DNA of 64,000 bases from an uncultured Candidatus Rokubacteria bacterium (GTDB lineage: Bacteria > Methylomirabilota > Methylomirabilia > Rokubacteriales > CSP1-6): the NCBI GenBank assembly GCA_963789955.1, contig CAWBMV010000001.1, positions 851,954 through 915,953 on the forward strand, in the 5' to 3' direction. The notes under the pieces are model-generated. The model was not told the DNA's origin and ran no database searches. It saw only the letters and a list, made by a program, of their open reading frames with translations. Shown one piece after another: positions 1 to 26,036 of this stretch. How positions within the stretch are numbered: the first letter of the stretch is position 1; each line of letters begins with the position of its first letter. The position numbers and the translations under genes are program-made.

Positions 1-1300
1 TCGTGATGGTGGTGCGCGTGGTGGCTTCGTCTCCGTGCTGGTGATCGTGGTCGTGCTCATGCTCCGGAGCGCGGGAATGAGCGGGGCGCGTGGTGATGAT
101 GCGCGCCGTGATGGTGGTGGTCGTGCTCGGAGGCGTCGCCGGCGTAGCGCCGCCAGAACAAGGACAGGCCGAGTGCCGCGATCGTCAGCCCCGAGGCCAG
201 CGCGACCCACGGATAGAGGCGCTCGGGGACCACGTACTGCGAGGCGTAGAAGGTCACGCCACCCAGCAGATAGACGCCGGCGGTGTGCGACGCGGTGACG
301 ATCAGCCCGAGGATCAGCGCGTGGCGCGCGGTGCCCCGCGAGCCCACGAGGTACGCCGCGACGACGGTCTTGCCATGGCCGGGCTCGAGCGCGTGGAACG
401 CGCCGAGCGCGGCGGCCACGGCGAGGGCGACCGCGACGACGCTCAGGGTGAGCTCGCGCGTTGTGATCAGGTCGGTGAACGCGCCGCGCGAGACTGACTG
501 GACGTTGACCTTCGCGACGACCGGCGCCGCGGCGGTCGTCTCGGTCGGCGACGTCACAGAAGCCGACGCGGCGGACGACGCTGGTACCGGAGGCCGGCGC
601 TTCCGACGGCGCCGATGTATCGGACGGCGACGGACGCGGTGGCGGCGCTGGCGTGTTCGCCACGACGGCAGGCGCCGGCGGACGAGAGAACCGCACGCGT
701 GCCTCGCGCGCTTGCGGCGGGCTGTCGAGAAGATCGGTCGGGTAGTCGCTCAGCTCGCGGCTGCGGTCGCGGTCCGGGACCGAGCTTTCGATCACGGTGC
801 TCCCGGCGCGTGCCGACCGCGACGACTTCCTTCCATCCGGTTCGCGCCGCGAAGTTGTCGTCGCGATACCACAGAGTTTCGACACCCCCGCGCGGGCTCG
901 CGAGCGGTGCGGCCATGAGGAGGGCGATCTTCATCGTCGGGAGATCCGCGGCGCCCGGCGGGAAGATCACCTCGGCCGAGCGGACGTCGAGCGCCAGCCG
1001 CTTGCCGTCGACCTCCAACCTCAGATTCGCTTTCAGCGCGTCGGCCGTGTCCCGGAGATAGCGCGACACGCGCGGATCGGCCGGGTCGGCGGGGATCTCG
1101 CGCGACTGCAGCTCCTGGAACGTCGGGATCTCGGCCATGTCGATGAAGTACCGCAGGGCAATCGCGTCCCGCTCGATCTGGATGCCGGTGTACTGACTGA
1201 TGCTGAAGTTACCGAGCGGATGCGCCGGCGCCGGCGCGGGCGTTGCCAGCGCCAGGGCGGCGAAGAGCCAGAGCGACCGGACGATCCGTTGTCTGACCAT
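1..1300 (-). CDS. High-affinity Ni/Co transporter (RcnA/NicO-like) with N-terminal periplasmic domain and His-rich loop; frameshifted, runs off the window
   Basis: Signal peptide then HPLGNFSISQY; HALEPGHGKT motif of RcnA/NicO; HDHHHHGAHHHH tract; pieces 554..1300 and 57..557 joined by frameshifts. Confidence 0.8.
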
Positions 1301-22298: not shown

Positions 22299-22604
22299 AT
22301 TTCTTCGTCACTCTAGCGGCTCGCCGATCGATTGCAAGTGGAAACTGCGGCTGCGCCGCTCGGCGCTGCGAGCGGCGGGCGGAACTCCGGTTCCTACTTC
22401 TCCGGTCGCGCACCCGCTCGGTGCGCGCTCGGCGGCGGTGCTGAAGCGCGCCGAGGTCGCGGAAGACGGAGTCGGTTGCGACTTTCGGCTCGTCGGGTCG
22501 CTCGCCGTGTCGCCGCGGCGCGCTCTGCGGCGTCAGCGCCACTCCGCGGCGCGCTCCGCAGCACTCCCGAAACACTCCCAGGTGGTCGGAAACGCGTTTT
22601 TTTC

Positions 22605-22633
22605 TTGCAATGGGTGAAAACGGACCCTACAGT
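22605..22633 (+). promoter_or_regulatory. Sigma70-type promoter of speD-speE in an AT-rich patch
   Basis: TTGCAA-17 nt-TACAGT with an upstream T-tract. Confidence 0.6.
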
Positions 22634-22744
22634 GAAACAAGTTTTTATTTAATAGCGAAATTTTTTCGGACTCTTTTCGGACTGTTTCGGACTTGGTGAG
22701 CGTGATCGCGACGTGAATGAAACGTCGCAGGAGAGGTGCGGTAG

Positions 22745-22777
22745 ATGAACGGATCGAAAGGGGGACCACTGGCTTGA
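22745..22777 (+). CDS. Putative 10-aa leader peptide MNGSKGGPLA overlapping the speD start
   Basis: SD AGGAGAGG at 22729-22736; ATG 22745; stop TGA overlaps the speD TTG (TTGA). Confidence 0.45.
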   Translation: MNGSKGGPLA

Positions 22778-23169
22778 ACGCCCTGGGACGACACCTGCTG
22801 CTCGAGATGTTCGACTGCGACCCTGACGCCATCAACAGCCTCGAGTCCGTCAAGGGGGCCTTGATCGAAGCCGCGAAGCGGGCCCAAGCGACCATCGTCG
22901 ACGTCGTCTTCCACGAGTTCAACCCGTTCGGAATCAGCGGAGTTGTCGTCATCGCAGAATCCCACCTGGCGATCCACACCTGGCCAGAATATCGGTACGC
23001 GGCGGTCGACATCTTCTCCTGCGGCGAAGTCCTGCAGCCGGAGGTCGCTGCCAACTACCTGGTCGAGCAGTTCGCCGCCGAGCGGACCTCGATCGTCGAG
23101 ATGCAGCGCGGAATGTTCCTCAACTCGGCAGTGCCGATCGTCAACAAGAGCCCGGTTCCGATCAGTTGA
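22774..23169 (+). CDS. speD: S-adenosylmethionine decarboxylase proenzyme (class 1b)
   Basis: LGRHLL.E, FHEF.P.GISGVVVIAESHLAIHTWPEY.YAAVDIFSCG; TTG start after AAGGGGG. Confidence 0.93.
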   Translation: MNALGRHLLLEMFDCDPDAINSLESVKGALIEAAKRAQATIVDVVFHEFNPFGISGVVVIAESHLAIHTWPEYRYAAVDIFSCGEVLQPEVAANYLVEQFAAERTSIVEMQRGMFLNSAVPIVNKSPVPIS

Positions 23170-24087
23170 TCAACTCGCAGTCCCATAAGTGGTTCATCGA
23201 GACCACGACCACCTTCGAGGGGCATATGCATGCCATCGCGAAGACGATCGTGGAGGCCCAGACGAAGTTTCAGCACGTCGAGATCCTCCAGACGGCGTCG
23301 TATGGCAAGACCCTGGTGCTCGACGGGCGCATCCAGTCCAGCCAGGGTGACGAGTTCATCTACCACGAGGCTCTGGTCCACCCGGGCCTCCTGGCGACCG
23401 AAGCGGCGCCCCGCAGCGCCCTGGTGATCGGCGGCGGTGAAGGCGCCACACTTCGGGAGATCCTGCGATACCCCTCTATCACCCGTGCCGTCATGGTCGA
23501 CATCGACGGTGAGGTGGTCGAGCTCTGCAAGACGCACCTGCCGGAGATGCATCAGGGCGCGTTCGACGACCCCCGGACCGAGGTGCGGAACGAGGACGCG
23601 CGCGGCTATCTCGAGAAGAGCAAGGAGCGGTTCGACTTCATCTCGATCGATCTGGTCGAGCCGCTCGAGGAAGGGCCGGCCTGCATGCTCTTCACGCGGG
23701 AGTTCTACACGCTCGTGAGAGGATCGGCTGACGCCCGGCGGCACGATGTCGATGCAGGCCGGGATGACCAAGCGTGGCGAGCTCGGCTTCTTCACGTCGA
23801 TCCATCGGACCCTGCGCGAGGTGTTTCCGATCGTCGCCGGGTACCAGACCTTCGTCTCATGCTTCGGCACGCCGTGGGGGTTCATCGTCGCCTCGAAGAA
23901 GGTCGACCCCAACAAGCAGGACGTCAAGGCGGTCGACAAGCTCATCGCCGATCGGATCAAGGGCTCGCTCGAGTACTGGGACGGCGTGACCCATCAGCAC
24001 GCCTTCAGCCTGCCCAAGTTCATCCGCAAGAGCATCGCGAAACAGACCCGGGTCGTCACCGACGCGAACCCTCTGATCGTCACCTGA
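23166..24087 (+). CDS. speE: Polyamine aminopropyltransferase (frameshift near 23720)
   Basis: LVLDGRIQS...DEFIYHEALVHP, LVIGGGEGATLRE, VDIDGEVV, LFTREFY. Confidence 0.93.
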
Positions 24088-24099
24088 GTCCTTCCCGCG

Positions 24100-24366
24100 A
24101 TGGCAGCCCAACGTGGCATCGGGCTGATCATCCTGGTGATCCTCGCCGGACTCGTGGTCGGCTCGCTCCTCGGAGAGCTTCTCGGCAGTCTCCTCCCGGC
24201 TGGCAACGCCCGCGAGCTGATCACTCGGGGCCCGATGATCGGCCTGATGCCACCCGCCACGATCGATCTGCGATTCCTCGCCATGACGTTCGGGTTGAGC
24301 CTCAAGGTCAACCTGGTGGGCGTCGCGGGGATTGTCCTGGCCATCCTCGCTCTTCGCCGTCTCTAG
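24100..24366 (+). CDS. Small membrane protein, DUF4321-like
   Basis: Hydrophobic segments; G..VGSLLGE...TIDL..L..TFG.SL.VN pattern; sits before maf. Confidence 0.7.
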   Translation: MAAQRGIGLIILVILAGLVVGSLLGELLGSLLPAGNARELITRGPMIGLMPPATIDLRFLAMTFGLSLKVNLVGVAGIVLAILALRRL

Positions 24367-24520
24367 GCGGGGCGCCGGGCGAGGGCCGGGGCCGGGTCGG
24401 CTGGGATCTGACTGCTGCGATCCTCGGCTTGGAAGTCATGTGCGCTGCGCGAGAGCGATGCTGCCTACACAGATCCCAGCCGACCCGCCCCCCGGCCCTC
24501 GCCCGGCGCCCCGCCTAGAG
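24361..24520. repeat. Near-perfect ~50-bp inverted repeat with 59-nt spacer, CTAG at both ends (MITE/REP-like)
   Basis: 24361-24410 is the reverse complement of 24470-24520 with one mismatch and one indel. Confidence 0.9.
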
Positions 24521-24522
24521 CC

Positions 24523-25102
24523 GTGAGATTGATTCTGGCGTCTCGATCTCCGCGGCGGCGGGAGCTTCTGCGTAGGATCTGGGCGGAGTTCGAGGTTCTG
24601 CCGAGCGACATCGACGAGGTGCTGGACGACGGGCCTGTTGGGGATGCGGTGGCTGGGCTTGCTTTGCGGAAGGGGCGGGCGGTGGCGGGGCGGGTGGGTG
24701 CTTGGGGTGGTGTTGGCGGCGGATACCGTGGTGGTGATCGATGGGGTTGTGTTGGGGAAGCCGGTGGGGGTTGAGGAGGCGACGGGGATGCTCGTGCGGT
24801 TGCGAGGGCGACTGCATGAGGTCGTTACGGGGGTGGCGGTCGTTGACGCTGAGACCGGGCGGTCGGCTTCGGCGACGGCGGTGAGCCGGGTGTTGATGGC
24901 GGCGTACTCGGACTCGATGATCGCGGACTACGTGGCGTCGGGCTCGCCCTTCGACAAGGCCGGCGGCTATGCGATCCAGGATCTGGGCGGCGCGCTGGTC
25001 GACGGCGTGATCGGTTCGTACACCAACGTCGTCGGGCTACCGGTGGAGGCGACGCGTCGTTTGCTGGAGGGGTTCGGGGTGCTCAGCGAACGGAGGGCTT
25101 GA
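24523..25102 (+). CDS. maf: Maf-family nucleoside triphosphate pyrophosphatase (frameshift near 24702)
   Basis: LILASRSPRRRELL, LAADTVV..DG..LGKP, HEVVTGV, DKAGGYAIQ, GSYTNVVGLP. Confidence 0.92.
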
Positions 25103-26036
25103 TCTGAAGCAGCATGTCCTCCGGCTTCGGGATCTTCACGGACTGCGGCAGCGGCGTGTGGGCCCGAATGATCGCGATGGTCTGCTGGAGCTGATCGGCC
25201 GAGACCTGGCCGTCCGGCAGATAGAGTCCGCGCGAGGCCGCGAGCCGCGCTTCGAAGTCGGCGAAGTCGCCGACGACTCGGGTTGGAAGGCGACCGGCCA
25301 GATCGCGCGCCTCGGCAGCCTGGATCCGCTGCTCGGCCTTTCTGAGCGCGCGAATCAGCCCCGCCAGATCGCGATCCGGCGCCCGCCGCTCGGCGCGGGT
25401 GAAGACCGCGGCGTTCACCGTGCTCGATCCGAGAATCGAGGCGGCGGCGCGCGGAGTTCGAAAATCGGCCAGCAGCTTGGCGCGGCCCTGACTCAGGAGC
25501 TGACTGGCCGCCGGCTCCGGGACCAGCGCGACGTGGACGTCGCCGGAGTCGATGGCGGTCACGAGACCGCGCTCGCCGAGGCTTCGCACGCGCACCTGGG
25601 CGATGCTCATGCCCGACCGGGCCAGGAGCCAGCCGAACCAGGCGTGCTCGGGTGCGCCCGGCGTCGTCACTCCCACGCGCATCGCGGACAGGTCCTCGAT
25701 GGAGCGCACGGCGCTCTCATGCGGGCCGGCGACCAGCAGCGCCACCGGGGGCGCTGCCGTCAGCCCGAAGATCAGCCTCGGAGACTGAGTCGACGTCGCC
25801 CGCAGGCCGAAGCGCAGGATCGCCTCGAGCGTCGTCGCGGCGAGATCCGCCTGGCCCTGAGCGAGGGCTTCGGCAGCTCCGGACTCAGCCCGCGTGGTCC
25901 TGACGGTGACGGCGAGCCCCTCCGCGGCGAAGTAGCCCTCGGCCTCGGCGACCCGGATCGGAAGGTATTCGGGTGAGGTGGGCGGGCCGCTCACCGCGAG
26001 CATCAGGGCCTGGAGCAGGATGATGAGCCCGGGCAT
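25083..26036 (-). CDS. ABC transporter substrate-binding protein (NMT1/SsuA-like), orphan
   Basis: YLPI.VAEAEGYFAAEGL.V, ALAQGQAD, SIEDL...RVGVT.PG, AI.SGDV. Confidence 0.8.
   Translation of the reverse strand: MPGLIILLQALMLAVSGPPTSPEYLPIRVAEAEGYFAAEGLAVTVRTTRAESGAAEALAQGQADLAATTLEAILRFGLRATSTQSPRLIFGLTAAPPVALLVAGPHESAVRSIEDLSAMRVGVTTPGAPEHAWFGWLLARSGMSIAQVRVRSLGERGLVTAIDSGDVHVALVPEPAASQLLSQGRAKLLADFRTPRAAASILGSSTVNAAVFTRAERRAPDRDLAGLIRALRKAEQRIQAAEARDLAGRLPTRVVGDFADFEARLAASRGLYLPDGQVSADQLQQTIAIIRAHTPLPQSVKIPKPEDMLLQIKPSVR

Follow-up and report, generated by a model that had tools for sequence, protein, structure and literature searches.

Dispersed hairpin repeats and a one-sided, strand-specific base shift in the neighbouring genes of a Rokubacteria genome

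The hairpin between the DUF4321 gene and maf

The window analysed here is a stretch of 64,000 nucleotides from an uncultured Rokubacteria genome (G000; 6.77 Mb, 87% complete). A gene with a DUF4321 domain (Pfam PF14209; 24100..24366, + strand) is followed by maf, which encodes a Maf-like protein (24523..25102, + strand), and a foldback element of family B fills the gap between them. The stop codon of the DUF4321 gene abuts and overlaps the left, G-rich arm (24361..24410, + strand), which starts within the CTAG that holds this stop. The loop has 59 nt (24411..24469, + strand), and the right, C-rich arm follows (24470..24520, + strand). The loop-end motif GCCTACACAGATC (24463..24475, + strand) lies at the junction of the loop and the right arm; it is conserved in family B, and reads GTAG on the bottom strand. 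The pattern of this motif was present in 17/17 genus genomes. The hairpin folds with z of about -13 on both strands. A search of 23900-25200 against Rfam returned 13 matches at E up to 5, none above gathering, and most of them to miRNA hairpins. The right arm terminates in the reverse complement of the end of the DUF4321 gene and may thus have been copied from the left arm.

To the right of the element, the + strand is depleted in C and A and enriched in G and T over 24530..24940, with a peak at ~24620-24820. A hand count in the earlier note on this DNA had given about 20 C and 85 G in 24631-24780, and it was exact: the segment contains 85 G, 34 T, 20 C, and 11 A. The note had also found no GGC, GCC, or CGC in the first ~135 codons of maf and a return of normal usage from ~24940. 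Both statements hold. In codons 1-135, GGC accounts for 0/14 Gly, GCC for 0/19 Ala, and CGC for 0/15 Arg codons (P ~6e-16 under genome codon usage); the first codon of this type is number 140, at ~24940. The GC skew of the zone is 0.57 per 200 nt, compared with a genome s.d. of 0.075, and the zone ranks second among the 16 genome peaks >0.4. The DUF4321 gene lies on the unaffected side, as had been thought, and has normal codon usage (4-fold C 31, G 20). The segment 24426..24626 (+ strand), which covers part of the loop, the right arm, and the first ~100 nt of maf, is tandemly repeated in a strain related to this one (run X5). The relative G013 has a similar duplication of the loop and the maf start, and G004 and G001 contain degenerate copies of the start of maf.

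The same G-rich sequence was found in contigs of public runs, namely X1 (24687-24880, 7 differences) and X3 (24502-24900, 12 differences). Relatives in fragmented assemblies share the G-rich stretch with different substitutions. A basecalling or assembly artefact, which had been considered earlier, is thus excluded. One extra base in the window maf at ~24701-24703 is absent from X1, X3, and 19 aligned relatives. It most likely reflects a mistake of the assembly and not a defect of the gene; both pieces of the gene match Pfam PF02545. The speE gene is frameshifted by a single extra base at ~23719, which is absent in 4/4 public runs and is probably an assembly error. Further upstream, a degenerate GC-rich repeat remnant occupies the speB-speD gap (22330-22550), a place taken by a family-A element in a related genome (L128), and a mild G skew follows the remnant at 22575-22800.

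Comparison of orthologues, as proposed in the earlier note, showed that most maf genes without the element are far less skewed. At the maf site, 10 genomes carry an element of family B, 2 of family A, and 1 of family C (the last read by eye), in one polarity throughout. Skew at maf outlasts loss of the element in G002, G006, and G014. Among 13 maf orthologues outside the genus, some reach a skew of 0.14-0.24 in codons 61-130 without an element. The element is present at maf in G003, G010, G015, and G016, yet the skew in these codons is just 0.01-0.05, which counts against the polar-tract reading discussed below.

Repeat families and their one-sided flanks

The hairpin at maf is one copy of a set of foldback repeats of ~150-170 nt, in which the loops are conserved (59-95 nt) and the arms are copy-specific (35-50 nt or more). 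A BLAST search with the whole element finds the element alone, because the arms vary between copies. By a hairpin scan and loop profiles, 36 copies of family A and 19 of family B were identified in the studied genome, at least 55 in total. A few copies of family C and four of the short-loop family D were also found. Family C was excluded from all counts, since 13 of the 20 sites matched by its initial pattern were false. The assembly includes co-assembled strain contigs (C1/C32/C33, C3/C4, C23/C34, C22/C26, C8/C13, and others; 92-97% identity, ~0.6 Mb aligned); a few copies sit on such contigs, which raise the copy counts slightly. Every copy reads G-rich arm, loop, C-rich arm, and its polarity is given by the loop alone. 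The A and B patterns occur in 17/17 genus genomes and the A pattern in 1 of 24 others; the named matches are Rokubacteria (Methylomirabilota) MAGs and one genome labelled Binatia. Among viral contigs, the family-A pattern had 0 matches, and the family-D motif had one, which lacks arms.

Over 134 family-A copies, the arms contain 194 G.T-type, 205 A.C-type, 72 G.G, and 71 C.C mismatches. This symmetry points to copy-correction of DNA rather than to RNA selection on the arms; RNA-level selection was rejected, as G.T-type and A.C-type mismatches are about equally frequent and there is no G.U preference on either strand. Close pairs of elements in the studied genome face each other in 5/5 cases, and one same-orientation pair was seen elsewhere (L103). 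The outer ends are the most variable part of the element, and no fixed target duplication was seen at 22 empty orthologous sites inspected by eye, so that the elements do not behave as MITEs of a DDE transposase, whose ends carry conserved terminal inverted repeats with a target duplication.

Several features of individual copies were recorded. A multicopy IS is inserted at the loop end of a family-A element (C23:35558-37171, C37:70036-71628, and C16:4879-6206). Its own end is G-skewed in at least 2 copies, and the skew beside C23:35558 belongs to the IS end. A family-B element lies ~40 nt upstream of a dinB-like gene (C6:188716-188864; L204), a family-C element lies directly after mutL (C30, ~89060), and in another genome an element lies beside a radC-like gene recognised by eye (L108). 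TAA stops are used by 7/20 right-zone genes and 6/27 left-arm genes, compared with 401/5557 genes genome-wide.

Flank skew was measured at +100..330 from the loop end, and 10 of the 55 copies, which form facing doublets, were set aside. In the studied genome, the right flank is positive in 43/45 copies, with a mean skew of 0.213; the mean of the left flank is 0.004. The null was -0.004 +/- 0.011, with a maximum of 0.031 in 5000 draws. With the small strain contigs removed, 38/39 right flanks are positive, and 4/4 family-D copies agree. In relatives, 219 motif matches gave 164 copies with a detectable arm and no doublet, 160 of them with enough right flank; the skew is positive in 142/160 right and 75/161 left flanks. 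Among metagenome loci, it is positive in 49/65 right and 30/68 left flanks, and 75 loci from short-read-style assemblies agree. Since these genomes are kin, the sets from relatives and metagenomes are replications, not independent tests. The skewed flanks beside other copies support what had been proposed from maf alone, that a cis element gives a one-sided, decaying, and strand-specific change in neighbouring genes. Next to these dispersed hairpin repeats, one strand of one flank is shifted from C and A to G and T, and functional genes are not spared.

The zone covers ~100-400 nt, with a decay length of ~125 nt beyond +170. The skew is 0.17-0.20 in the strong lineages (G004, G005, G006, G007, G011, G013, and G014) and 0.04-0.09 in the weak ones (G003, G010, G012, G015, and G016). 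Duplications were found in 4/160 right and 0/163 left flanks of relatives, a small contrast. Of the 44 genome skew peaks >=0.30, 17 lie beside a correctly oriented A, B, or D element. Among the others are tuf, low-complexity genes, a family-C copy, and probable remnants. Two G-rich gene starts without an upstream element (C3:64950-65225 and C4:14330-14600) are probably remnants after element loss.

The loop polarity, not gene strand, replichore, or expression, sets the skewed side. At +150..250, the fraction of C at four-fold sites falls to 0.255 in sense genes (against 0.47) and to 0.225 in antisense genes (against 0.43); across all genes, neither the first nor the last 250 nt has a comparable shift. 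The skew does not differ by replichore (0.27 for 17 copies and 0.21 for 20 copies, p 0.14). It is present with the left gene in either direction, which excludes read-through transcription from that gene, and ribosomal-protein genes are ordinary, which argues against high expression. The polarity of the loop is equal in 65/71 orthologous pairs and flipped in 6. The six relatives' flipped copies have the skew on their own right side (0.14-0.25). At C1:197363, for example, the skew is on one gene in the studied genome (0.35) and on the other gene in G007 (0.14). Two copies of the studied genome lack right skew; their orthologues have the opposite polarity, and these two copies keep a weak remnant on the left (-0.13 and -0.09). 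A flipped copy in G004 retains -0.30 on the old side, and the skew outlives the loss of the element at C4 near 15950.

Kind of change and possible mechanisms

Relative to the background, G/C in the zone is raised x2.25 (1.80-2.78). T/C is raised x2.17 at four-fold and x3.70 at two-fold sites, and G/A x1.62 (with an interval that includes 1) and x1.98. The ratio is x1.57 for T/A, x0.96 for T/G, and x1.38 for A/C (again with 1 in the interval). Thus, C is the main base lost, and the change from A to G or T is about half as strong as the loss of C. The GC content is unaltered (0.681 vs 0.686). C is lost in every neighbour context, and there is no deaminase-like motif. In comparison with empty orthologues in the studied genome over all aligned sites, from which two out-of-frame SBP rows were left out, C>G has an odds ratio of 1.50, C>T of 1.56, and A>G of 1.59; the direction of substitution rests here on pairwise tables and composition rather than on tree-based polarisation. 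At four-fold sites C>G alone is consistent, and A>G is mixed (OR 0.23 in strong lineages, 2.55 in weak). On the loop-pointed side, the strand that reads G-arm, loop, C-arm is driven from amino (C, A) to keto (G, T) bases.

The drive alters the direction more than the rate of substitution. At 51 loci, where the element is common to the studied genome and a strong-lineage relative, the zone/distal ratio of four-fold distance is 1.00 (0.79-1.24). A two-state model for these loci gave C>G x1.88 (1.44-2.39) and G>C x0.63 (0.46-0.84); this split assumes stationarity and is based on self-made crude gene calls. A fixation bias of B=1.08 would give x1.63 and x0.56, close to the observed values. Because the total rate is unchanged while C>G is up and G>C is down, a directional drive, not hypermutation, is indicated. 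The same pattern, in which the favoured change is raised and its reverse lowered at an equal total rate, is expected of biased gene conversion, assuming stationarity. The locus at maf itself is different. It diverges ~2x faster than its neighbours (26/73 vs 316/1770 four-fold sites against G004, p 0.0005), and pieces of public contigs differ at 19/591 positions in the zone and 50/4329 outside, a count that omits four more divergent pieces (three outside, one inside; 26/714 vs 81/4800 with them). The faster and more polymorphic maf fits added mutation and counts against a conversion-type reading. The local hypermutation of the earlier note therefore suits maf, but not the 51 loci. Between the co-assembled strain contigs, the divergence at +50..200 is 0.19-0.23 vs 0.085; these positions are mostly intergenic and lack an intergenic control, and the value was not used as evidence.

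The reading that we prefer, and to which we give an even chance, is that the loop is a polar start point for short strand-replacement or strand-exchange tracts with keto-biased resolution. A host factor recognising the loop might open or nick one strand there, and a short tract of strand replacement or strand exchange, with a mean of ~125 nt, would enter the skewed flank. Keto-keto mispairs (G.G, G.T, T.T) would be kept or resolved towards the top strand, and amino-amino mispairs (C.C, C.A) would not. Alleles would then be driven as in biased gene conversion, with a strength of B ~1. The same events might copy-correct the arms, flip or swap the loops, and leave tandem duplications of loop and flank, and purifying selection would keep Maf functional. 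Strand replacement of DNA from the loop is pointed to by the right arm that ends in a copy of the left gene end, by the duplications of loop and flank (run X5, G013, and the excess in right flanks), and by the facing orientation of close pairs. The fixation-type signal fits conversion or weak selection alike and cannot separate them, and the G-rich left arm has no account under the polar-tract reading.

Candidate enzymes were searched for by Pfam families, and because the MAGs are incomplete, enzymes without a match are given as not found, not as absent. Y1_Tnp (PF01797) was found in 0/17 genus genomes (66-99% complete) and in 7/41 genomes overall, and no element lies near the 10 Y1_Tnp loci inspected. 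This argues against the nicking by an HUH/RAYT/IS200-type nuclease that had been suggested for maf. Y2_Tnp (PF04986) was not found in the studied genome and occurs in 5/16 genus relatives; at 15 loci examined, no loop match lies within 1.5 kb of it. Rep_trans was found in 0/41 genomes, and RVT_1 was not found in the studied genome at its 87% completeness. IS110 is patchy (16/25) and was not found in the strongly skewed G004, G005, and G007. Among 701 neighbour ORFs, 637 have a match in the studied genome and 64 have none, and 62 of the latter were scanned with Pfam. No transposase or nuclease family was found among the 62, and 15 had no Pfam match. HUH and deaminase motifs, searched over ~6000 self-called genes, gave no useful candidate and no HUH match. 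The specificity of NucS would be the best fit to the proposed mismatch resolution. NucS was not found in the studied genome; MutS, which handles C.C poorly, and MutL are present. There are also four Y-family (IMS) matches and a Rho gene.

Several other explanations might account for the skew. One is selection at the RNA level. RNA of the bottom strand would act, on its way into the hairpin, as a rut-like loading site for Rho and would be kept rich in C/A, poor in G/U, and free of structure; the element would serve transcripts arriving from the skewed side, whether sense or antisense, as a Rho-dependent terminator or attenuator. REP/BIME sequences are known for attenuation by Rho, the gene is present, the length of the zone suits a rut region, and weak selection would also raise C>G and lower G>C. 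However, the shift is as strong in genes translated on the bottom strand, whose RNA would be covered by ribosomes, as in genes for which the bottom strand is antisense. The arms show no G.U preference on either strand, the skew survives loop flips or loss, and the arm copying and duplications are left without explanation. We regard Rho as an unlikely cause. An RNA-primed process like that of ColE1 seems slightly less probable again. The loop would fire a short RNA or primer rightwards, and in the resulting R-loop or D-loop Pol I or a Y-family polymerase would extend for a few hundred bases with its own error bias. The sign of the bias and the decay with distance match the Pol I footprint at ColE1, as described in the available text of PMC3167613, and the Y-family matches, the x3.7 gain of T at two-fold sites, and the one-sided duplications are in favour. 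But a pure excess of errors should raise the total and spare G>C, and the observed values are 1.00 and 0.63. In addition, C>T dominates the ColE1 errors (PMC3167613, in the part available), and C>G dominates here. No sigma-70-type promoter was found in 24000-25200, although this test is weak. A promoter role of a GCCTAG-like motif 60-130 nt downstream was set aside, as its spacing is variable.

The model of the earlier note, that an HUH/REP-type nuclease or processing of the hairpin exposes top-strand ssDNA in which cytosine damage raises the local mutation, appears somewhat less probable than either. It would explain why maf diverges ~2x faster and is more polymorphic. The loop ends also read GTAG (family B) or GTTC (family A) on the bottom strand, and GTTC is an IS91 signal. 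GTAG tags REPs (PMC3733652, available text), and oxidative mutagenesis in ssDNA targets mainly cytosines (PMC3799438, available text). Nevertheless, the enzymes do not fit: Y1_Tnp and Rep_trans gave no match in the 17 genus genomes and the 41 genomes, respectively, and Y2_Tnp is unlinked to the elements and was not found in the studied genome. The 51 loci show no rate excess, G>C is reduced, and C is lost in all neighbour contexts without a deaminase-like motif. Cruciform processing, also suggested earlier, would be symmetric, and the skewed side follows the orientation of the loop. Finally, an ordinary cause, such as codon or start-region bias, amino-acid composition, or a sequencing artefact at the hairpin, is very improbable. 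Indel errors do occur in the assembly, and the few skewed orthologues outside the genus without an element (0.14-0.24 in codons 61-130) are in its favour. It is refuted by gene starts and ends that are generally unshifted, by a shift on either gene strand that follows loop flips, and by the presence of the shift in the 75 short-read-style loci and the public contigs.

Relation to known systems

The phenomenon is real, lineage-wide, flip-controlled, and outside every family tested. One likeness is to REP/BIME/REPIN sequences, which are extragenic palindromes in tens of copies, often right after a stop codon and often in facing pairs (PMC3733652 and 10.1101/279083, available text); inverted doublets occur here as well, as the close pairs show. 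However, REPs have 20-40 bp with conserved arms (PMC3733652, in the part available), and the elements here have 150-170 nt with conserved loops and copy-specific arms. GTAG lies at the foot of the REP hairpin; in family B, GTAG occurs on the bottom strand, but within the loop, and families A, C, and D are without it there. The available portions of PMC3733652 and 10.1101/279083 report no one-sided base shift in REP flanks, in contrast to the shift present here, and the cognate Y1 transposase of REPs was found in none of the 17 genus genomes. In IS91/ISCR, a Y2 transposase is bounded by the element ends, an arrangement not found here, where the enzyme was not found in the studied genome and is unlinked to the elements in relatives.

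Other systems share single features with these repeats. Chi is an 8-mer that acts over kilobases via RecBCD in an orientation-dependent manner, and its surroundings are reported to be GT-rich. The likeness is an orientation-dependent cis signal with one-sided decay, but the signal here is a long hairpin with a reach of ~0.1-0.4 kb. Diversity-generating retroelements change A by using a template repeat and a reverse transcriptase. They resemble the present case in having a cis hairpin beside a locally rewritten coding region, but here C is chiefly lost, and RVT_1 was not found in the studied genome. The footprint of Pol I at the ColE1 origin is one-sided, decaying, and strand-specific, with A>G, C>T, A>T, and C>G in excess of their complements. 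It was obtained at a single plasmid origin as a readout of error-prone Pol I and is dominated by C>T (both from the available text of PMC3167613), whereas dozens of chromosomal sites, C>G, and no rate excess are found here. In the melting-pot model of the rolling-circle origin of porcine circovirus, a conserved loop signal is combined with arms that stay complementary (PMC2690592, available text). The elements here, known from sequence alone, are chromosomal and far longer, and Rep_trans was found in 0/41 genomes.

Gene conversion between tufA and tufB (PMC5485169, available text) is a further parallel, since in tuf, too, silent sites of one strand go from C to G where DNA copies overwrite each other. 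Both tuf copies of the studied genome (C34:297808-299001 and 313794-314988) have a four-fold G of 0.83-0.87, and the neighbouring ribosomal-protein genes are ordinary. All 20/20 tuf rows scored across the order (including L424-L442 and L444) have a four-fold G of 0.82-0.96. The G bias of tuf is also present in genera without elements, and there is no gain of T at four-fold sites, which counts against tuf as a parallel. Moreover, tuf needs a second gene copy and is gene-bounded, whereas the change here affects single-copy DNA, has its side set in cis, and also gains T. We regard it as possible, at somewhat below even chances, that these mobile and invertible hairpin families serve a dedicated host or selfish enzyme as polar entry points for short tracts of strand exchange or repair synthesis. 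They would then be portable hotspots of strand-biased conversion that recode the genes beside them, they would spread and swap their loops through this one reaction, and the mechanism would also explain the G bias of tuf.

A literature search, from which subscription journals were mostly absent, found no short cis element that steers the one-strand base composition of single-copy host DNA on one side. It also gave no account of the present repeats, or of skew in a single flank next to repeats of bacteria. That repeats rewrite adjacent host DNA in this way has apparently not been described before. If the drive is of the conversion type, the elements would provide hundreds of oriented, flip-controlled natural replicates for testing biased gene conversion in bacteria. 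The loci would then show how the mismatch class sets the direction of conversion, a long-open question that bears on the G-rich tuf. If the explanation by Rho is true, the phenomenon would be a variant of REP-like attenuators. A loop-binding factor would be a new DNA-processing activity. In codon-based analyses, the rewritten zones mimic foreign DNA, positive selection, or assembly error.

Two further regions of the studied genome have an extreme strand composition. At C37:198700-199560, three patches are nearly C-free on one strand (3 C in ~580 nt, A+T ~68%) and lie within ~5 kb of a tyrosine integrase; either an artefact of basecalling or an extreme loss of cytosine from foreign DNA might be the cause. 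At C20:40900-41800, the sense strand of a repeat-domain gene is saturated with C for ~1.1 kb, and no hairpin element lies close by; this is possibly the same conversion bias in the opposite direction.
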